IMG/VR virus record: IMGVR_UViG_3300032156_000005
Location: 1 to 64,000 of that record
Origin: a virus
Lineage: Duplodnaviria > Heunggongvirae > Uroviricota > Caudoviricetes
DNA: 64,000 nucleotides
Strand: one strand, 5' to 3'
The notes beneath the pieces are model-generated. The model ran no database searches. It had not been told where the DNA came from and was given only the letters and a program-made list of their open reading frames with translations. Position numbers and translations under genes: made by a program. Positions 38,819-63,188 of the stretch are shown piece by piece. How positions within the stretch are numbered: the first letter of the stretch is position 1; each line of letters begins with the position of its first letter.

Positions 38819-41590
38819 ATGATACCCTTAAATACGCCCACCACCATCAAGTTGGAAACAACGACCCAATCAGGGGCTCGTGTTAGGGTTCCAGCTACAA
38901 TCTTGGCCACTGACGCCAGGATTGAATTCTTAAAATCCCCCTTCTCTTTGAAGGACGAGATTAAGGCAATGAAGCATGCCGAGTGGCAGGGGTACAAGGA
39001 TCCACCAAGGAAAATTTGGACAGTAGAAAACTGTCAACGTAATTGGTTTCAATTACAGGTCATGATGGGGGAAAATCCCTACGAATGGTTTGATCGTCCA
39101 CTCCAGCATTTCAAATATGATCGCCCTCTGATGGGTCACCAGTTTGATATGTCGGACGCTGGACTCACATACCATTATCAACTCTTCGGAGCAGAAATGG
39201 GCTGCATTGCCGGGGACGCTATTGTTCACGTAAACCGTGCTGGTAGGGGATTTGCGTTTTGTTTGAGTGAACTTTGTTATAAATTCCACGGTGGTCGGAG
39301 TAGCGGCACGACGATGCGTTCCGACACCCGCGGTAGGTCATGGGATCTGAGTATTCCAACCTATGTCCAAGGATTTAAGGGCGACCGAATTGGACTAGTT
39401 AAGATACAGGATGTATTGTATAAGGGGCGGAGAGAGGTTGTTCGCGTGACTTTGGAGACAAAATCACTGACACTGACTCCAGATCACGAGGTCTGCATAG
39501 GAGCCTTTAGGTATGGTAAGTTTAAACCAGTTCAGGATCTAGTAATTGGTGACCGTGTTATGGTACGACTTGATGATGGAGTATCCGATGAGGTTAATAG
39601 CGAGGTACAGGCACTCCCGAGTACGCTAGTAAAGACAACAACGCGTGGTATGGGTTACTGGCTAGATAAAGATGGATATATACGTATCGGCGGTCTAAAG
39701 GGTCATCCACGTTGGGGTGCCCACGGAGTCTACGAGCATCTTCTAGTAATGGAAGATTTGCTTGGCCGACCTGTGCAGATTGGCGAAGAGGTTCACCATA
39801 AGAATAAACAGCGATGGGATAATCGTCCGTCGAATTTAATTTTGTGTGCGACTAAAACAGACCACATGGCATTGCATCAAAATTACAAGAATTTAAAATG
39901 TGGGTGTTATGTGTTTGAATGTGTCACCGGCATTAAAGACGCCGGGTCGATTGATGTCTATGATATCCAATGTGAGGGTCCATACCACAACTTTGCCGCT
40001 AATGATATAATTGTCCATAACTGCGGCAAAACTTTGTCAGCCATTGAAACGATGGAGAAGTCAGGTAAAAAGAAGTGGTGGTGGGTAGGTCCTAGATCTG
40101 GACTCTATGCAATCGAGCGCGAATTTAAGAAATGGGAAATCAGTCCCAACCTTGAAGTGGAGTTAATGACCTACGAGGGTCTGGTAAAACGCATGGGAAT
40201 GTGGAAGTCAGGCGACCCCGCTCCAATGGGTATTGTCTTCGACGAAATCAGCAGGTGTAAAACTGCCAAGACGCAACGAACACAAGCCGCCCAGGCTATT
40301 GCAGACGGTGTCCGTGCTGATTGGGGTCTAGAAGGTTACGTCCTTGGCATGTCTGGCACCCCATCCCCCAAGTCACCTGTGGATTGGTGGGCGCCGACGG
40401 AGATCATTTGGCCTGGATTTTTACGCGAGGGGGATTCTAATGCGTTCAAATTTAGACTTGGGATTCACAAAAAAGAAGAGAGTGCTATGGGTAATGCCTT
40501 CTGGCAACTCGTGGACTGGAGAGACGACGAACGAAAATGTGATGTTTGCGGAGAATTTAAGGAAGAGGGTATGCATTCATGTCGTATCGGCACGGATTTG
40601 AATGGGACGGAATCGGACATTCATGATTTTAAAGCCAGCATAAATGAGGTGGCATACCTTAATGAGCGACTAAAGGGGTTGGTCATCGTGAAGCTGAAAA
40701 AGGACTGCCTCGATCTGCCAGAGAAACAGTATCGACAGGTATTCTGTAAACCATCACCAGCAACCGTCCGAGTTGCTGAAGCCTTGATGAAATCGGCACC
40801 AAATACCATTACTGGTCTAACTCGTCTTCGTGAATTGAGCGACGGGTTTCAGTATAGGGACAAGGTCGTTGGTAAGGAAACTTGTCCAATATGCAAGGGC
40901 ACTTGTTTGAATACTTACTGGGTAGATCCAGAAGATTCTGAGCGTGCTTTTACTATGACCGATATGTTAGACGCAGAGTATGTATCTACATTGATTCAAA
41001 CTGAGATGCCATGTGTATCATGTAATGGCACGGGCGAAGTCGCTAAGATCGAGCGTCAAGTGAAAGAAGTACCGTGTCCCAAGGAAGCGGAGTTAATTAA
41101 TCTCCTAGACGAAAACGAAGAGACTGGCAGGTTGGTTGTATTCGCTGGTTTCACTGGTTCGATTGACAGAGTGACCAACGTATGTATGAAGCAGGGTTGG
41201 GACGTGATTAGGGTTGATGGACGTGGTTGGTTGACTTTTAAGGCTGACGGAGAAACAACAGCCGAAGCGCCATTGGATTATTGGGCTGACGTTGTGAATC
41301 ACCCACGAGTAGTATTTGTTGCACATCCGAAGTCTGGCGGTATGGCCCTGACATTGACCGAAAGTAGAATGATCTGTTTCTACTCGAATGACTACAATCC
41401 AGAATCCCGAAGTCAGGCCGAGGATCGTATACATCGTCCTGGAATGGATATTAATCGTGGAGCAACAATAGTTGACTTGTTACATTTACCCACCGATTTA
41501 AAGGTGCTGGAGATACTGAAAGCTAATAGGCGTCTAGAACTAATGTCTCTCGGCGAATTTCAGGGCTGCTTTCAAGATGTCGAAGCATAG
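38819..41590 (+). CDS. SNF2/DEAD-like helicase interrupted by an intein in the Walker A motif
   Basis: Exteins give Walker A FGAEMG|CGKT and a DExx-like FDEISRC. Helicase C-terminal motif VI is QAEDRIHRPGMDI, preceded by ...VVFAGFTGSIDRV.... Cys4 clusters CPICKGTC...CVSCNGTG. The intein occupies 39203..40021. Confidence 0.7.
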   Translation: MIPLNTPTTIKLETTTQSGARVRVPATILATDARIEFLKSPFSLKDEIKAMKHAEWQGYKDPPRKIWTVENCQRNWFQLQVMMGENPYEWFDRPLQHFKYDRPLMGHQFDMSDAGLTYHYQLFGAEMGCIAGDAIVHVNRAGRGFAFCLSELCYKFHGGRSSGTTMRSDTRGRSWDLSIPTYVQGFKGDRIGLVKIQDVLYKGRREVVRVTLETKSLTLTPDHEVCIGAFRYGKFKPVQDLVIGDRVMVRLDDGVSDEVNSEVQALPSTLVKTTTRGMGYWLDKDGYIRIGGLKGHPRWGAHGVYEHLLVMEDLLGRPVQIGEEVHHKNKQRWDNRPSNLILCATKTDHMALHQNYKNLKCGCYVFECVTGIKDAGSIDVYDIQCEGPYHNFAANDIIVHNCGKTLSAIETMEKSGKKKWWWVGPRSGLYAIEREFKKWEISPNLEVELMTYEGLVKRMGMWKSGDPAPMGIVFDEISRCKTAKTQRTQAAQAIADGVRADWGLEGYVLGMSGTPSPKSPVDWWAPTEIIWPGFLREGDSNAFKFRLGIHKKEESAMGNAFWQLVDWRDDERKCDVCGEFKEEGMHSCRIGTDLNGTESDIHDFKASINEVAYLNERLKGLVIVKLKKDCLDLPEKQYRQVFCKPSPATVRVAEALMKSAPNTITGLTRLRELSDGFQYRDKVVGKETCPICKGTCLNTYWVDPEDSERAFTMTDMLDAEYVSTLIQTEMPCVSCNGTGEVAKIERQVKEVPCPKEAELINLLDENEETGRLVVFAGFTGSIDRVTNVCMKQGWDVIRVDGRGWLTFKADGETTAEAPLDYWADVVNHPRVVFVAHPKSGGMALTLTESRMICFYSNDYNPESRSQAEDRIHRPGMDINRGATIVDLLHLPTDLKVLEILKANRRLELMSLGEFQGCFQDVEA
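39203..40021 (+). mobile_element. Intein (273 aa) with HNH homing-endonuclease domain, inserted in the helicase P-loop
   Basis: Starts Cys (CIAGDAIVHVNRAG, block A) and ends ...NDIIVHN followed by +1 Cys (CGKT). The internal HNH motif is EEVHHKNKQRWDNRPSNLILCATKTDHMALH. Removing it restores the contiguous P-loop GAEMGCGKT. Confidence 0.75.
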
Positions 41591-54716: not shown

Positions 54717-56396
54717 ATGCGAACCGGTTCTCGAATTATTGGAGCAAGACGAATGAGATTTCATCTATTTGGGTTAGCGAACATCCCAACGTGTAAAGAG
54801 AATACCTATGAACCCATGACTCCACTGGTTTGGAACATGGCTAAGATGCTACATGACCACGGCCATCACGTCATCTTCTATGGTGCCGAGGGGAGTAATC
54901 CACCTTGTAGCGAGCTAGTAAATATCGTTCCAAAGGATTTGTTACCTGATCCCGCTATTGGAAATCACGGTGTACCCATGGCAGCATGGAAAAACGACGG
55001 CGGCAGCCCTTCCTGGCAGTCTTTCATAAATACTGGACGACTGGAATTGCGTAAACGCTACCAGACGGGTGATATTTCACTCATTAGTTTTGGTCAGTAC
55101 CAAAGATTCGTGGCAGAGGAATCAAAACTCGCTTGTGAATTCATGTGCGGATACTCAGGTATTTTTAGTTACCATAAGGTTTTTCCATCTAGTGCTTGGA
55201 TGCATTATCTATATGGTGAACTCAAAATGGAACGAAACCCCACTTGGACTGATTGTGTCATCCCACATTACCTGGATCTAAGTGACTTCAGATACCAAGA
55301 GGAAAAGGGCGACTATCTTCTATGTCTGGGTCGAATCGATCGAGATAAGGGCACAGACATCGCCATCGACATCGCAAATAGGAGTGGCTCCAAGATCATC
55401 GTTGCCGGTGTCGATATGGTAACGCACGATATTCCGGATTGGATTAAACAAATGCCGGGTAACGTAGAATTTGTTGGCTACGTGGATACAAAGCGAAGAC
55501 TCGAACTATTACGTGGTGCCAAGGCATTATTGCATCCATGTAGGTGGTTGGAGCCATTTGGGATGGTTTTAATTGAATCGTTGGCTTGTGGCACGCCGAT
55601 TATTGCTAGTGACTGGGGTGCCCTACCTGAGATTATTGAAGAGGGTAAGACTGGTTTTTGTTGCCGGGATATGTCTGAGTTTATACAGGCCGTAAAGAAT
55701 GTGTCATACTTAAATCCGCGTGATTGCCGTATTTCCGCCGAACGGGATTATGGGCTGGAGATTGCGTATACAAGGTATATGAAGTACTTTACGCGACTTG
55801 CCAAACTACTGGGAGGTGGCTGGTATGAGACCAGAGGTATCTGGCGTGGACCAGATGTTGTTGGGCGGGTACGCCGACTACAACCGACTGATAAACCACT
55901 ACGAGGGGCAGAGATCGGTGTTGATCGCGGTGCTTTGTCAGGGTATCTCATGTCTGAACTACCTAATCTCAATTTGTTATTGGTTGATACCTGGAGTACC
56001 TTCGCAGACGATTCAGGGTACACAAAATCTGGTGATCTTGTAACCCAACGAACACAAGAACAGCGGGATGCTGATCTGTTTGAAACTATGCGTGTCACTC
56101 CTCGTGATCGTTCTTGTATCTGTAGAATGACATCCGCCGAAGCTTCTGAAAAGGTTTTAGACGGATCGCTTGATTTTGTATTCATTGACGCAGACCATAG
56201 TTATGAGGGTGCCAAATCTGATATACAGTTATGGGCCTCTAAGATACGAGATGGTGGCATTCTTTGCGGGCATGACTTCGGTATGGAAACGTGGTTCCCT
56301 GACTGGGGTGTTACAAAGGCGGTTACTGAGTACGCGGAAAGCGTTGGTAAAACTGTTGAGTTGGGTTCTGATTGGACATGGTTTATCCAGGTGTAA
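54717..56396 (+). CDS. Glycosyltransferase (GT-B, GT1/GT4-like) fused to a class I SAM-dependent methyltransferase
   Basis: GT signature EPFGMVLIESLACGTPIIASDWGALPEIIEEGKTGF (E-x7-E motif). The C-terminal ~190 aa carry MTase motifs GAEIGVDRGALSGYL (motif I-like) and LDFVFIDADHSYEGAKSD (TylF/macrocin-O-MTase-like FIDADH). Confidence 0.6.
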   Translation: MRTGSRIIGARRMRFHLFGLANIPTCKENTYEPMTPLVWNMAKMLHDHGHHVIFYGAEGSNPPCSELVNIVPKDLLPDPAIGNHGVPMAAWKNDGGSPSWQSFINTGRLELRKRYQTGDISLISFGQYQRFVAEESKLACEFMCGYSGIFSYHKVFPSSAWMHYLYGELKMERNPTWTDCVIPHYLDLSDFRYQEEKGDYLLCLGRIDRDKGTDIAIDIANRSGSKIIVAGVDMVTHDIPDWIKQMPGNVEFVGYVDTKRRLELLRGAKALLHPCRWLEPFGMVLIESLACGTPIIASDWGALPEIIEEGKTGFCCRDMSEFIQAVKNVSYLNPRDCRISAERDYGLEIAYTRYMKYFTRLAKLLGGGWYETRGIWRGPDVVGRVRRLQPTDKPLRGAEIGVDRGALSGYLMSELPNLNLLLVDTWSTFADDSGYTKSGDLVTQRTQEQRDADLFETMRVTPRDRSCICRMTSAEASEKVLDGSLDFVFIDADHSYEGAKSDIQLWASKIRDGGILCGHDFGMETWFPDWGVTKAVTEYAESVGKTVELGSDWTWFIQV

Positions 56397-58893: not shown

Positions 58894-60933
58894 ATGCCTA
58901 ATAAGCCTTCATTCGCTCAAACAATAATGGATCGAACCTATTCTCACTATTTAGAGGACGAGAATAGGCTTGAAACCTGGGAAGAGATTGCCACCAGAGT
59001 AACAAAAAATGTTATGAAGTCCGTTGGTGTCAATATGCGACAAAAACTCGCACAGGATATTCAACGGTTCATTGCTGAGAAAAAATTGATCCCAGGTGGT
59101 CGATACTTGTATGCCTCTGGTAATACTCGGCATCAAATTAACAATTGTCTGGCTCTAAAAGTCTATGACAGTCGTGAAGGTTGGTCCGAACTCTTGTCCA
59201 AGGCCAGCATGGGTCTAATGACAGGCGCAGGTATTGGTGTGGACTATAGTGATATTCGCTGCGAAGGTTCCCCAATTCGTAAGACAGGTGGAGTCGCGAC
59301 TGGCCCCATCTCTCTCATGCAAATTGTTAATGAGTGTGGTAGGGGGATAATCCAAGGCGGAAATCGTAGGTCGGCGTTATGGGCGGGACTTCGTTGGAAT
59401 CACCCAGATATCCATAAGTTCATTCGTATTAAAAACTGGCCGTCTGAAATACAGTCTTTAAAGGCAAAAGACTATAGTTTTCCAGCGGTTTTAGATATGA
59501 CTAATATCAGTGTTCAGTTGGACGATGATTTCTTTGAAGCCTACCAAGACGACGAACATTCGCAACATGCTTTGGCTCATGGTGTTTATTGGGCCTGCAT
59601 AGAACAAATGCTAAAAACGGGGGAACCAGGATTTTCCATTGACGCTGGAAAAAACGCTGGAGAGACTTTGCGAAATGCACCAGTGAGCGCTGATACGCAT
59701 GTTTTGACAGACGCGGGATATACTAAAGTCAAGGATATCATTGGCATACCAGTAACACTATGGACTGGAAAACAGTGGGCTAAGAATGTTATCTTTGAAT
59801 GTACTGGAATCAATGTCCAGACGCTAAAAGTAAAGATGTCGAATGATCGAGAGATAAACGCGGATCCTAGTCATGAATTTGTTGTACAGCTTGGCCTCGG
59901 ATTGACGATCAAAATACCGGCTAGGGATCTAAAAATTGGTCAGGTATTAAAGTCGGACGACAATGTCACAGTGTTATCGGTAGAACCAGACCGCATCGAA
60001 GACGTATACTGTTGTAATGTAAACTGTCCAGAGCATACATTCGTAGCAGAGGGTGTGGTTATTTCAAATTGCGGTGAATTATCTGCAAAAGAATCTGACG
60101 AACCTTGTAATTTAGCCAGCATCAATCTTTCAAAGGTAGAGAGCCTGGAAGAACTTAAACAGATCGTTGACGTAGCAACCGCCCTCTTACTGGCGGGTTC
60201 CGTATACTCGGACGTGCCATATAGTGATGTGGATAAGATGCGAACAAAGAACAGGCGACTTGGTTTGGGTCTTATGGGCGTACACGAATGGTTACTTATG
60301 CGAGGTAAACCCTATGGACCTGACGAGGAATTGGGGCAGTGGCTTTCTCATTATGCTAAGTCTGGCAAGTATGCAAATAAGTGGGCGGATGAGTGGGGAC
60401 TCTCGCGTCCGAAGAAGACTCGTGCAGTTGCCCCTACCGGGACGACCAGCATCGTAGCAGAAACTACAGGCGGTATTGAACCCATTTTCTGTGTGTCCTA
60501 CAAGCGACGATATCTAAAGGGCGATCAACAGTGTTATCAGTATGTAGTTGATCCATGTGCAAAGCGTTTAATCGAGGGAGGCATAAAGCCAGAATTGATC
60601 GAGGACGCCTACACACTTGCACAAGATGTTGAGAAGCGTGTTGCATTCCAAGCCTGGGTTCAAAACTACGTGGATCATTGTATTAGTAGTACAATCAACT
60701 TGCCAGCATACGGATCCGAGTTAAATAACTCGAATTTAATCCGACCCTTTGGTTCTATGCTAATGCGATATCTACCTCAATTACGTGGGATTACTTGTTA
60801 CCCAGATGGTAGTAGATCTGGTCAGCCGTTGTCACCTGTTCCTTATGAAGAGGCCACGAAGCATGAAGGGGTGGAAATGGTGGAAGAGTCCATGAATATT
60901 TGTAGTCTGAGAGGTGGTAGCTGTGGAGATTAA
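58894..60933 (+). CDS. Ribonucleotide reductase, class II-like, with intein-like insertion at the catalytic Cys
   Basis: Active-site motifs ...N|CGELSAKESDEPCNLASINL (N-x-C-G-E then C-N-L-x-S-I-N 12 aa later, class II spacing). N-terminal allosteric region PGGRYLYASGN. C-terminal redox pair CSLRGGSCGD. No NrdB gene nearby. Confidence 0.6.
   Translation: MPNKPSFAQTIMDRTYSHYLEDENRLETWEEIATRVTKNVMKSVGVNMRQKLAQDIQRFIAEKKLIPGGRYLYASGNTRHQINNCLALKVYDSREGWSELLSKASMGLMTGAGIGVDYSDIRCEGSPIRKTGGVATGPISLMQIVNECGRGIIQGGNRRSALWAGLRWNHPDIHKFIRIKNWPSEIQSLKAKDYSFPAVLDMTNISVQLDDDFFEAYQDDEHSQHALAHGVYWACIEQMLKTGEPGFSIDAGKNAGETLRNAPVSADTHVLTDAGYTKVKDIIGIPVTLWTGKQWAKNVIFECTGINVQTLKVKMSNDREINADPSHEFVVQLGLGLTIKIPARDLKIGQVLKSDDNVTVLSVEPDRIEDVYCCNVNCPEHTFVAEGVVISNCGELSAKESDEPCNLASINLSKVESLEELKQIVDVATALLLAGSVYSDVPYSDVDKMRTKNRRLGLGLMGVHEWLLMRGKPYGPDEELGQWLSHYAKSGKYANKWADEWGLSRPKKTRAVAPTGTTSIVAETTGGIEPIFCVSYKRRYLKGDQQCYQYVVDPCAKRLIEGGIKPELIEDAYTLAQDVEKRVAFQAWVQNYVDHCISSTINLPAYGSELNNSNLIRPFGSMLMRYLPQLRGITCYPDGSRSGQPLSPVPYEEATKHEGVEMVEESMNICSLRGGSCGD
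59677..60069 (+). mobile_element. Mini-intein-like Hint domain (~130 aa) immediately upstream of the RNR catalytic Cys
   Basis: Block A-like ADTHVLTDAGYTKVKDIIG, block B-like INADPSHEFVV, block F/G-like IEDVYCCNVNCPEHTFVAEGVVISN followed by +1 Cys (CGE). The N-terminal junction is non-canonical (no Cys/Ser at the expected position 1; RNAPVSADT), so the left boundary is approximate. Confidence 0.5.
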
Positions 60934-61414
60934 GAATTTAATGCGGCAGGCATACCTCTATGGAGACTGGTTCAGTGTTGACAAGAGCACACATCTGGGT
61001 GCAATACTCGTCGATGACACGGGTAAAATGCGTGCAATGGGGGTAAATACATTCACGGACGACACCCAAAAGGAAGTGGAAGCTAATTATTTCAGGCCGC
61101 GTAAATACCAAGTTACCGAGCATGCGGAACGTTCAGCCATCTACTATGCAGCTAGGAATGGCATAGCAACGCGTGGATTGACACTCATTTGCCCGTGGGC
61201 ATCGTGCCCAGATTGTGCCAGGGCTGCGGTTATGGCCGGTATCAAGGAAGTGATTGGGCATAAACAGGCATTTGATAGGACGCCAGATCGGTGGAAAGAC
61301 GAGATCAATGTAGGTTTCGAGATCCTAAAGGGTGGTGGTGTAACATACACCTTCTACGATGGTAAAATCGGGGACGTAGAGAATCTATTTAATGGGGAGA
61401 TTTGGCATCCATGA
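60914..61414 (+). CDS. dCMP deaminase
   Basis: Zinc-binding motifs HAERSAI (H-A-E) and CPWASCPDCARA (PC-x-x-C) of the cytidine/dCMP deaminase family. Confidence 0.8.
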   Translation: MVAVEIKNLMRQAYLYGDWFSVDKSTHLGAILVDDTGKMRAMGVNTFTDDTQKEVEANYFRPRKYQVTEHAERSAIYYAARNGIATRGLTLICPWASCPDCARAAVMAGIKEVIGHKQAFDRTPDRWKDEINVGFEILKGGGVTYTFYDGKIGDVENLFNGEIWHP

Positions 61415-62082
61415 TAACAGTAGTCGAGCCACGTTTTTATTGGCCAGAAACAACACGCTTTGATGGCATCTTGCAACATATCGAACGCTGTGGACGCACA
61501 TGCTATAGGTCAGAATCTCGGATCACTGAGGATTCATCCGAGAGATTTGTTAAAATGATTCGACAATCAGGGCATGAAAGTGTCCTGGAGCATGTATCTT
61601 TAACTGCGATTGTTGTTTGTAGTCGGGCCTGTTCGCACCAACTTGTTAGGCACAGGATAGCTGCGTACTCTCAGGAGTCGATGCGGTTCTGTAACTATGG
61701 TAAGTCAGAGAGTTTGCAGGTTGTTTGTCCTCCAAGTATTGGACTATCACCACGAGACTATAGCATCGATGATACTGATTATTTGTTTGCAAGTGATATG
61801 ATTAATTATCGACAATTTTGCTGGCTAAATCTACGAGAAACAGAATACGCAGAATATCTTAGCGAACTTAAAGAGGGCATCTTACCAGAGGATGCCCGGT
61901 ATAATTTACCAAATGCAACCAAGACAGAACTTGCCACAACCTTTGATCTGCGTCAGTGGCGACATGTCTTTAAGGAGCGTGCCTTGAATAAACACGCACA
62001 ATGGGAAATTCGCAACATCTTCTCTGGTATTCTTGCAGATCTAAAGACACGGATTCCTGTTGTTTTTGACGATTTGGCATAA
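61402..62082 (+). CDS. thyX: Flavin-dependent thymidylate synthase ThyX
   Basis: ThyX signature RHRIAAYSQESMR (R-H-R-x7-S-x-R). Confidence 0.85.
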   Translation: MASMITVVEPRFYWPETTRFDGILQHIERCGRTCYRSESRITEDSSERFVKMIRQSGHESVLEHVSLTAIVVCSRACSHQLVRHRIAAYSQESMRFCNYGKSESLQVVCPPSIGLSPRDYSIDDTDYLFASDMINYRQFCWLNLRETEYAEYLSELKEGILPEDARYNLPNATKTELATTFDLRQWRHVFKERALNKHAQWEIRNIFSGILADLKTRIPVVFDDLA

Positions 62083-62102: not shown

Positions 62103-63188
62103 ATGAAAAGACGAGAATTTTTAATGCAGGCCCACAAATACAACGCAGTAAAATGCGATGTTTCTGGGCATTATATCTCTGAAAAGTTAGACGGAAGCCG
62201 ATGTTTTTGGGATGGAGGGATCAGCCGTGGGCTACCAACCGAAACAATACCTTGGGCCAATATCTTGGACCCAAAAACAGGTTTAAAGAAGTCTAAAATT
62301 AAACCCATTGCATCGGGTTTATGGTCCCGGTATGGTAATCCAATTATAGCCCCAGATTGGTGGTTGAATCAATTGCCATGCATTCCGTTGGATGGCGAGT
62401 TGTGGGCGGGTCGTGGAAAGTTCCAACTATGCCGTTCTATCTGTGCTAAAGATGTGCCCGTCTCCAGTGAATGGGCTCTATTAGACTATGCCATAATCGA
62501 CAGTCCTCCATTTTCAGCCGTCTTTATGGATGGCCGAATCAACTGCCCCAATTTTAGGCACGAAATTAACCTGGACTGTGTTTCTAAGTGGCTAGCCTCG
62601 CGTGATAGTCTCTTGCATGATTACAAATTCCTACCACTCGGTATGATTTTTGAACAGACTATGGCACTTCTACAGCAATCTGTCCCATCAGAAGGCAAAA
62701 TCTATCTACTGAAACAGAAGATTCTACCCGTGTCGAATGCCGCTGAAGCAGTTGAAAAAGAACTCGAACGGGTTCTCGATTTGGGTGGGGAAGGTGTGGT
62801 AATCCGGGATCCAACGAGTTCATGGATGCCCCAGCGACTGCACACGGTGCTTAAATACAAGCCATATTCTGACGCTGAAGGTACGATTATAGGATTTACC
62901 AGTGGTAGGGAGACTGAGAGGGGCTCTAAGCATCTAGGTAAGATCGGTGCCCTCATTCTAGACTACAAGGGTAAGAGGCTGGAGCTATCAGGCTTAACGG
63001 ACGAAGAACGGGAGTTTGCTGACAAGGATCAATTTTTCGCCACCTGTAATCCAGGTAAGGTCATGCCCGCTGGGACCTATGGAAAGCACTTCCAACTAGG
63101 CCAAACGATCACATTTAAGTACCGAGAATTATCAAATGACGGCGTTCCAAAGGAAGCCAGATACTTTAGACCACGGGATGAGGAATAA
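62103..63188 (+). CDS. ATP-dependent DNA ligase (small phage-type)
   Basis: Motif I YISEKLDGSRCFW (K-x-D-G-x-R adenylation lysine). Downstream nucleotidyltransferase/OB region with EGVVIRD (motif IV-like) and LKYKP (motif V-like). Confidence 0.7.
   Translation: MKRREFLMQAHKYNAVKCDVSGHYISEKLDGSRCFWDGGISRGLPTETIPWANILDPKTGLKKSKIKPIASGLWSRYGNPIIAPDWWLNQLPCIPLDGELWAGRGKFQLCRSICAKDVPVSSEWALLDYAIIDSPPFSAVFMDGRINCPNFRHEINLDCVSKWLASRDSLLHDYKFLPLGMIFEQTMALLQQSVPSEGKIYLLKQKILPVSNAAEAVEKELERVLDLGGEGVVIRDPTSSWMPQRLHTVLKYKPYSDAEGTIIGFTSGRETERGSKHLGKIGALILDYKGKRLELSGLTDEEREFADKDQFFATCNPGKVMPAGTYGKHFQLGQTITFKYRELSNDGVPKEARYFRPRDEE

Follow-up and report, generated by a model that had tools for sequence, protein, structure and literature searches.

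An insertion before the radical cysteine of a phage ribonucleotide reductase

How can a ribonucleotide reductase (RNR) be active when its reading frame is interrupted, immediately before the radical cysteine, by an intein-like sequence that starts with proline? This question is raised by the Caudoviricetes phage contig IMGVR_UViG_3300032156_000005 of IMG/VR, of which positions 1 to 64,000 were analyzed and are referred to here as the window. According to the list of open reading frames (ORFs) and its translation, the stretch 58894–60933 (+ strand) codes for a class II-like (NrdJ-like) RNR precursor of 679 amino acids. Inside it, at 59680–60069 (+), lie 130 amino acids (Pro263 to Asn392) without a homing endonuclease domain, whose removal leaves an RNR of 549 amino acids. 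Going by the residues found at its splicing positions, we regard this element as a functional, endonuclease-free mini-intein in the finger loop of the RNR, most likely splicing by a class 3-type pathway, i.e., one that starts from an internal cysteine, and we would give this reading a probability of roughly 70%.

The limits of the insertion are set by the intein-free homologues, which read LRNA|CGE. Among the 120 best homologues of the RNR, around 60 are of this kind, with ca. 550 amino acids and a continuous ...LRNACGE..., and 49 carry an insertion at the identical point. The N-extein thus comprises RNR residues 1–262 (58894–59679, +), ending in ...GETLRNA, and the C-extein (CGELSAKESDEPCNL...) extends over 60070–60933 (+) up to the stop codon. 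When Pro263–Asn392 is taken out RNACGE is recreated, that is, the N-x-C-G-E motif, and therefore the residue following the intein (Cys393, position +1) is the thiyl-radical cysteine. The host protein matches Pfam Ribonuc_red_lgC (E 6.6e-48) and NCBIfam NrdJ_Z (E 1.7e-73). The best match of its spliced form is the B12-dependent RNR of Thermotoga maritima (1xjk, E 9e-35), a class II NrdJ, in an alignment that pairs RNACGEL with TNPCGEI and puts Cys393 on the cysteine of TNPCGE. The insertion keeps the reading frame, is free of stop codons and does not differ in G+C content from the host gene (0.42 vs. 0.44 and 0.46). It is not a chance feature.

A sequence-only reading of this stretch had quoted the RNR as ...GETLRNA-PVSADTHVLTDAGYTKVKDI...VYCCNVNCPEHTFVAEGVVISN-CGELSAKESDEPCNLASINL, which is the exact translation of the ORF at 58894–60933 (+), and had located the insertion at 59677–60069. 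The end was exact and the start was one codon early, Ala262 being the last residue of the N-extein, so that its own suspicion of a boundary off by a few residues was justified by a single codon. From its three candidates for residue 1 (Ala262, Pro263 and Ser265) only Pro263 suits both the intein-free alleles and the chemistry, and the other two can be discarded. The check that it had proposed, an alignment with intein-free RNRs, fixes the insertion point and leaves N-x-C-G-E in the host once the element is removed. We also considered a lineage-specific RNR insertion common to all homologues, which is ruled out, with about half of the close homologues being free of it.

A HINT-fold mini-intein

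The curated sequence models of inteins did not reach their thresholds on the insertion. Pfam PF14890 (Intein_splicing) scored 20.8 bits (cut-off 35.8) and TIGR01445 scored 20.3 bits (cut-off 24.5), the latter with profile position 2 on Val264. This is why the protein is recorded with an RNR domain only, and the practical consequence is that standard domain models miss the Pro1 intein, so that RNRs like this one are annotated as if they had none. A search of the PDB with the single intein sequence gave no match, and the intein by itself likewise retrieved no homologue in a word-indexed search, which was replaced by a full HMMER profile scan. However, when the PDB was searched with a family profile built from nine mini-intein relatives, the significant sequence matches (E <= 1e-3) were inteins only, the best with E 2.6e-6.

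The predicted structure points in the same direction. The AlphaFold2 model of the intein, built on a 46-sequence alignment, had a predicted local distance difference test score (pLDDT) of 92.4 and a predicted template modeling score (pTM) of 0.85. With a best E of 2.6e-7, the 50 best Foldseek matches listed from the PDB were without exception inteins, bacterial intein-like (BIL) domains or hedgehog domains, and the highest target template modeling scores (TM-scores) among them, 0.79–0.81, corresponded to two class 3 inteins, DnaBi1 of M. smegmatis (Msm; 6bs8) and DnaB1 of M. chimaera (Mch; 6rix). To this can be added that the insertion is in frame at a conserved host site for which homologues provide intein-free alleles, and that the C-terminal Asn392 followed by Cys393 at +1 is invariant across the family. 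Judging from the model, Pro263–Asn392 is a genuine HINT-fold mini-intein placed directly before the thiyl-radical cysteine, as the sequence-only reading had proposed for an insertion at the catalytic cysteine.

Residues at the splicing positions

Residue numbers up to 130 count from Pro263 in what follows. Block A (PVSADTHVLTDAG, 59680–59718, +) starts with Pro as residue 1, coded by CCA at 59680–59682. The core of block B (59863–59880, +) reads D62-P-S-H65-E-F67, i.e., a DxxH with Asp at B:7 and His at B:10, followed by Phe at B:12. Block F (VYCCNVNCPEHTF, 60004–60042, +) has Cys111 (60010–60012) at F:4, the putative initiating nucleophile, together with His119 and Phe121. Block G (GVVISN|C, 60052–60072, +) has Ile at G:5, Ser at G:6, Asn392 (60067–60069) at G:7 and Cys393 (60070–60072) at +1. 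The non-canonical N-terminal junction and the penultimate Ser (Ser391) had been noticed before, and blocks A and B had been recognized. What had been overlooked is the invariant Cys at F:4 in combination with DxxH. For the same reason, the former description of blocks F and G as textbook examples with a terminal Asn holds for the Asn and fails for block F, where Cys stands at F:4 vs. the standard Asp.

In the 46-sequence alignment the invariant residues were P1, T6, G13, T29, G30, F39, T42, H65, F67, A81, L84, V109, C111, E118, H119, F121, A123, E124, G125 and N130, plus the Cys at +1. Pro as residue 1 and Asn as last residue were found in all 49 close homologues (i.e., those with the insertion), and the penultimate residue was Ser in 47 and Ala in the other two. 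P1, H65, F67, C111, H119, F121, N130 and the Cys at +1 were likewise constant in these 49. Position G:5 (Ile128 in the window) was I in 30, V in 16 and L in three of them, and the block F consensus was V-[YF]-C-[CA]-[DN]-[VT]. The HMMER scan of the family profile against 1.84 billion representative proteins gave 2439 matches at E <= 1e-3, 513 at <= 1e-10 and 30 at <= 1e-30, and the best 150 were parsed. They contained 81 representative inteins (clusters at 50% identity) located at N-x|C-x-E of an RNR, 32 of them starting with Pro (Pro1) and 49 with Cys (Cys1). The triplet formed by B:12, F:4 and G:5 was FCI in 20, FCV in 11 and VCI in one of the Pro1 clusters, B:12 being therefore Phe in 31 of 32 and V in one. 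B:7 was D in 23, E in six and S in three, G:6 was S in 29, K in two and A in one, and G:7 was always Asn. The Cys1 clusters were different, with the triplets FCT (25), WCT (six), FCV (five), FDV (four), FYT (three) and a few others, Thr at B:7 in 49 out of 49, mostly Gly at G:6, and either Asn or Gln at G:7. Over these 81 RNR-site inteins Pro1 strictly co-occurred with Cys at F:4 and with the absence of the TxxH threonine. A scan of IMG/VR added 34 viral loci, all with RNA|P, Cys at F:4 and Asn|Cys, in which Pro1 was coded by CCT (12), CCG (11) or CCA (11). The nearly equal use of three proline codons indicates selection for Pro.

These data bear on whether the element might be a degenerate HINT domain that does not splice and is kept in the protein, with the RNR being either inactive (in practice a pseudogene) or tolerant to the insertion. 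The sequence-only reading had contemplated this option, and the scores of PF14890 and TIGR01445 under their cut-offs, the lack of an N-terminal nucleophile and of a penultimate His, and the loss of the endonuclease would all agree with it. However, the insertion is placed directly before the radical cysteine, inside the active-site loop, and as it splits N-x-C-G-E at that residue, splicing is needed for the RNR. Besides, the catalytic positions are all invariant among sequences that are just 44–65% identical, Pro1 has survived synonymous codon turnover among its three codons, and a broken signature appeared nowhere, whether in the 34 viral loci, the 32 clusters of the RNR site or the 49 homologues. 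The predicted structure is a complete HINT fold of high confidence, Pro1 inteins are proven splicers elsewhere (PMC2807308), and most relatives, with 300–334 amino acids, retain a LAGLIDADG endonuclease (PF14528), the mini-inteins of 126–155 amino acids being the window copy and eight others. We consider a dead domain very improbable.

The same alignments speak about the position of residue 1. One could imagine a standard class 1 intein whose boundary lies further in, Ser265 being the true first residue and Pro-Val being left behind in the RNR loop, an idea that finds some basis in the Ser at insertion position 3 and in the Cys that replaces it in some homologues. But this position is variable in the family (S, A, C, V, H and T), the block A profiles set position 1 at Pro263, and the product RNAPVCGE would lengthen the N-x-C-G-E loop in a way that is seen in no intein-free homologue. 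We give practically no credit to this possibility.

A probable class 3-type pathway

In class 3 inteins a branched thioester is formed at block F and the N-extein is then passed to the +1 residue (PMC4031507). Their prototype, the intein of mycobacteriophage Bethlehem, has Pro1, splices efficiently and cannot dispense with Cys F:4, His B:10 or Trp B:12 (PMC2807308). In the structure solved by crystallography for DnaBi1, a class 3 intein, block B has a DxxH (Asp62, His65) and Cys118 takes the place of RecA Asp422 (PMC6195587). The window intein might proceed through comparable steps. The thiol of Cys111 would attack the Ala262–Pro263 bond, aided by His65, Asp62 and the packing residue Phe67, and the N-extein would come to lie on Cys111 as a branched thioester. 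From there it would pass to Cys393 at +1, and Asn392 would cyclize to free the intein, probably assisted by His119, since the penultimate residue is Ser. Finally, an S-to-N acyl shift would form the Ala262–Cys393 bond, and with it RNACGE and an active RNR of 549 amino acids would be regained. Every residue that this scheme requires is invariant, and their positions are equivalent to those of the catalytic residues of solved class 3 inteins. Cys111 aligned with Asp F:4 of the Mtu RecA, PolB16 and VMA inteins (HMMER) and, in hidden Markov model (HMM) and profile–profile alignments, with the catalytic Cys of the Bethlehem intein (MP-Be), Msm DnaBi1 and Mch DnaB1. In the alignments to these three class 3 inteins P1, H65 and F67 paired with P/A1, H65 and W67.

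Several points weigh against this pathway. Out of five HMMER alignments with solved inteins, the two with CDC21-1 inteins put block F two residues off. For Mch DnaB1, the Thr at G:5, replaced by Ile here, has been proposed to belong to a Cys-His-Thr triad (PMC7664689). A WCT triplet grafted onto a class 1 intein gave no splicing (PMC7664689), and for this reason Cys F:4 alone is no guarantee of the mechanism. This residue is also common in the Cys1 relatives, where another role is conceivable, and the combination of Ser at G:6 with Cys at +1 is also that of class 2 inteins (KlbA).

The last two points lead to a class 2-like alternative in the style of KlbA, by which Cys393 would attack the Ala262–Pro263 amide directly, producing the branched intermediate of block G in a single step, and Cys111 would be auxiliary or regulatory, e.g., a disulfide partner. 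Like class 2 inteins, the window intein lacks an N-terminal nucleophile and has Ser391 at G:6 and Cys393 at +1, the family has neither the W nor the T of the class 3 triplet, and Cys F:4 is present in Cys1 relatives that have no obvious need of a second nucleophile. On the other hand, the known class 2 inteins are all Ala1 KlbA orthologues that require Asp at F:4 (PMC4031507), confined to archaea and with Thr at B:7. Here there is a phage RNR with Pro1, an invariant Cys at F:4 (Cys111) and Asp62 at B:7. The earlier option of an Ala1-type intein is thus discarded, since every one of the 49 homologues, 32 clusters and 34 viral loci has Pro as residue 1 and since F:4 is Cys instead of the Asp that KlbA requires. 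In addition, the strict co-occurrence of Pro1, Cys F:4 and DxxH matches the class 3 structures. The one class 3 intein with a natural Cys at +1, a published exception to the usual Ser or Thr, is the Bvi IcmO mini-intein, in which this Cys could not substitute for Cys F:4 and failed to attack the N-terminal junction in its absence, showing that the order F:4 and then +1 is obligatory (PMC5222942). Bvi IcmO resembles the window intein in its lack of an N-terminal nucleophile, its Cys F:4 and its Cys at +1, and is unlike it in its complete WCT triplet and in the protein that it interrupts. On this balance, the direct attack by Cys393 appears unlikely, and initiation by Cys111 is the reading that we prefer.

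Position among known inteins

Class 3 inteins are held to be one (monophyletic) lineage, with the WCT triplet, found mostly in helicases and terminases. The window intein has some of their traits and lacks others. With the WCT inteins (MP-Be, 6bs8 and 6rix) it shares the absence of Cys, Ser or Thr at position 1, a Cys at F:4 (also designated C2:4), His65 at B:10 accompanied by a residue other than Thr at B:7, the terminal Asn and the association to phages. The DxxH of block B and the HINT fold, with the target TM-scores given above, are those of DnaBi1 and DnaB1. Unlike them, it has Phe67 instead of Trp at B:12, Ile128 (Val or Leu in relatives) instead of Thr at G:5, Ser instead of His at G:6 and Cys393 instead of the usual Ser or Thr at +1; it resides in an RNR rather than in a helicase or terminase, its sequence relatedness to them is weak, and it did not group with the single WCT lineage by hhalign, HMM score or neighbor-joining tree. 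In the census of Hoffmann et al. (2020) class 3 is defined by the lack of Cys at position 1 together with Cys at C2:4 (PMC7891396). By its residues, therefore, the element is a class 3 intein under the census definition and is not class 3 under the original WCT signature. The census includes seven "FCV" inteins among 1702 (PMC7891396). These may belong to the Pro1 RNR family, 11 of whose 32 clusters have this triplet. Our literature searches yielded no description of a class 3-type intein in an RNR alpha subunit.

The sequence of the class 3 prototype was recovered from gp11 of mycobacteriophage Bethlehem by a genome scan, allowing a direct comparison. The Bethlehem intein reads P-L-A-L-N-T-E-V... 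SASH65GW67 ... VKC320IGIDTEDH328LF330 ... ILTHN|T, and the window intein P-V-S-A-D-T-H-V... ADPSH65EF67 ... VYC111CNVNCPEH119TF121 ... VVISN|C. They are alike in the Pro start, in the numbers of the His and the aromatic residue of block B (65 and 67) and in the spacing of block F, from Cys to His (+8) and from Cys to Phe (+10).

Deviations from the WCT triplet have a precedent. The split intein AceL NrdHF (PDB 6zgq), from a phage-like RNR operon, has a proven class 3 mechanism with an MCT triplet and no penultimate His, and therefore both a deviant triplet and the absence of this His are compatible with class 3 splicing. Unlike the window intein, AceL NrdHF is split, starts with Ala, retains Thr at G:5 and is located in the beta subunit (NrdHF).

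The closest sequence relatives of the Pro1 family are the Cys1 inteins of the same RNR site. They interrupt the same N-x|C-x-E point and most of them have Cys at F:4, Phe or Trp at B:12 and Cys at +1, but they differ in their Cys start, in TxxH, in the usual Thr at G:5 and Gly at G:6, and often in a terminal Gln. By hhalign, the Pro1 family matched the RNR-site inteins with Cys1 and Cys F:4 with a probability of 99.96 (E 4e-39) and the WCT class 3 inteins with a probability of 93 (E 3e-7), and the Bethlehem intein scored 7 bits against the Pro1 family HMM. In a neighbor-joining tree computed without the two diagnostic columns the Pro1 RNR inteins formed a single clade, with modest support (139 out of 300 bootstraps), nearer to the inteins with Cys1 and Cys F:4 than to those with Cys1 and Asp F:4. 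These comparisons suggest that the element is a member of a separate Pro1 clade among Cys1 RNR-site inteins that mostly have Cys F:4 already, outside the WCT class 3 group.

Such a position would open the possibility that splicing started by an internal Cys arose a second time, independently, inside the RNR-site lineage with Cys1 and Cys F:4, a proposal that we put forward tentatively and to which we would concede slightly less than an even chance. Under an independent origin, the Cys1 inteins (FCT or WCT, Thr at B:7) and the Pro1 inteins (FC[IV], Asp or Glu at B:7, Ser at G:6) would be the natural "before" and "after" of the step from class 1 to class 3. Engineering could not reproduce this step (PMC7664689), and convergent evolution of the fold has been proposed by others for that reason.

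By starting from an internal Cys, the Pro1 inteins would use a rare but known kind of mechanism, in this case in a previously undescribed lineage. Its importance lies in its bearing on the passage from class 1 to class 3, and here a widespread phage family keeps only the Cys of WCT, beside relatives at the same site with Cys1 that already have the internal Cys. If splicing does take place via Cys111, W and T would be dispensable even together, and the RNR-site inteins would provide a natural series for tracing how the initiating nucleophile moved. In that case these very small inteins (126–130 amino acids), with the unusual Ala|Pro...Asn|Cys junction, would also be of use for the protein-engineering toolbox. 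The RNR activity of the phage would depend on splicing through up to three neighboring cysteines (C111, C112 and C+1). Redox control has reportedly been shown for the class 3 intein DnaBi1, and by analogy a redox control of the supply of deoxynucleoside triphosphates is conceivable here, although as speculation.

Distribution and host history

The family was found in metagenomic phages only (49 close homologues, 32 clusters and 34 IMG/VR loci), and a pattern-limited scan of GTDB, with one genome per species, retrieved no relative. Cultured phages carry only the Cys1 type, with 28–35% identity, the cases being ICP1, the Corynebacterium phage Darwin and phages of Staphylococcus, Rheinheimera, Acinetobacter, Proteus and Pectobacterium. 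The histories of the intein and of its host RNR differ, as illustrated by P0002, which has the closest extein (87–88% identical) and an intein of 320 amino acids that is only 53% identical in the splicing part.

In another protein of the same RNR lineage, P0188 (1174 amino acids), a Cys1 intein with the FCT triplet fills the same site (EILRNA|C...GVVTGQ|CTE), and therefore a single site of a single host family can hold either a Pro1 or a Cys1 intein. This lineage of RNRs is a hot-spot for inteins. P0003, P0004, P0009, P0013 and P0097 (850–1180 amino acids) carry further inteins, with two extra sites in the RNR, ...HQV(x)N|C...GN|CLLL and ...GG(x)RR|C...SHN|SAIWAGL, and some proteins have two or three inteins. 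A Pro1 intein was also seen in a different host. P0171 (1307 amino acids), a protein without the N-x-C-x-E motif of RNRs, contains at residues ~548–678 the intein SMC|PLAINTRVMT...GLITSN|CRL, with Cys at F:4, Thr at G:5, Ser at G:6 and Cys at +1, and the tree did not place this intein within the clade of the Pro1 RNR inteins.

Other genes of the window

The RNR is followed by a gene for deoxycytidine monophosphate (dCMP) deaminase (60914–61414), whose GTG start overlaps the RNR stop by 20 nucleotides, and then by ThyX (61402–62082) and an ATP-dependent DNA ligase (62103–63188). No ferritin-like or NrdB gene adjoins the RNR in the window, and for this reason the enzyme fits a cobalamin-dependent class II better than class I or "class O". 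The latter assignment was considered and rejected, the next genes downstream being those of dCMP deaminase and ThyX instead of a ferritin-like one. Apart from the dCMP deaminase, ThyX and the ligase, the phage contig, which is metagenomic and 121.5 kb long, encodes a terminase, a portal, a major head protein and a family A DNA polymerase.

The window contains a second intein, at 39203–40021 (+) within the ORF 38819–41590. It is a canonical class 1 intein of 273 amino acids (CIAGDAIV... VYDIQCEGPYHNFAANDIIVHN|CGKT) with an HNH endonuclease, recognized by Pfam as Intein_splicing (E 2.3e-7) and HNH_3 (E 7e-8), and it interrupts the Walker A motif (AEMG|...|CGKT) of a SNF2-like helicase. Finally, the ORF at 54717–56396 (+), with 559 amino acids, combines according to PHROGs a glycosyltransferase-like region (residues 11–372) with a DNA methyltransferase-like region (residues 397–542).

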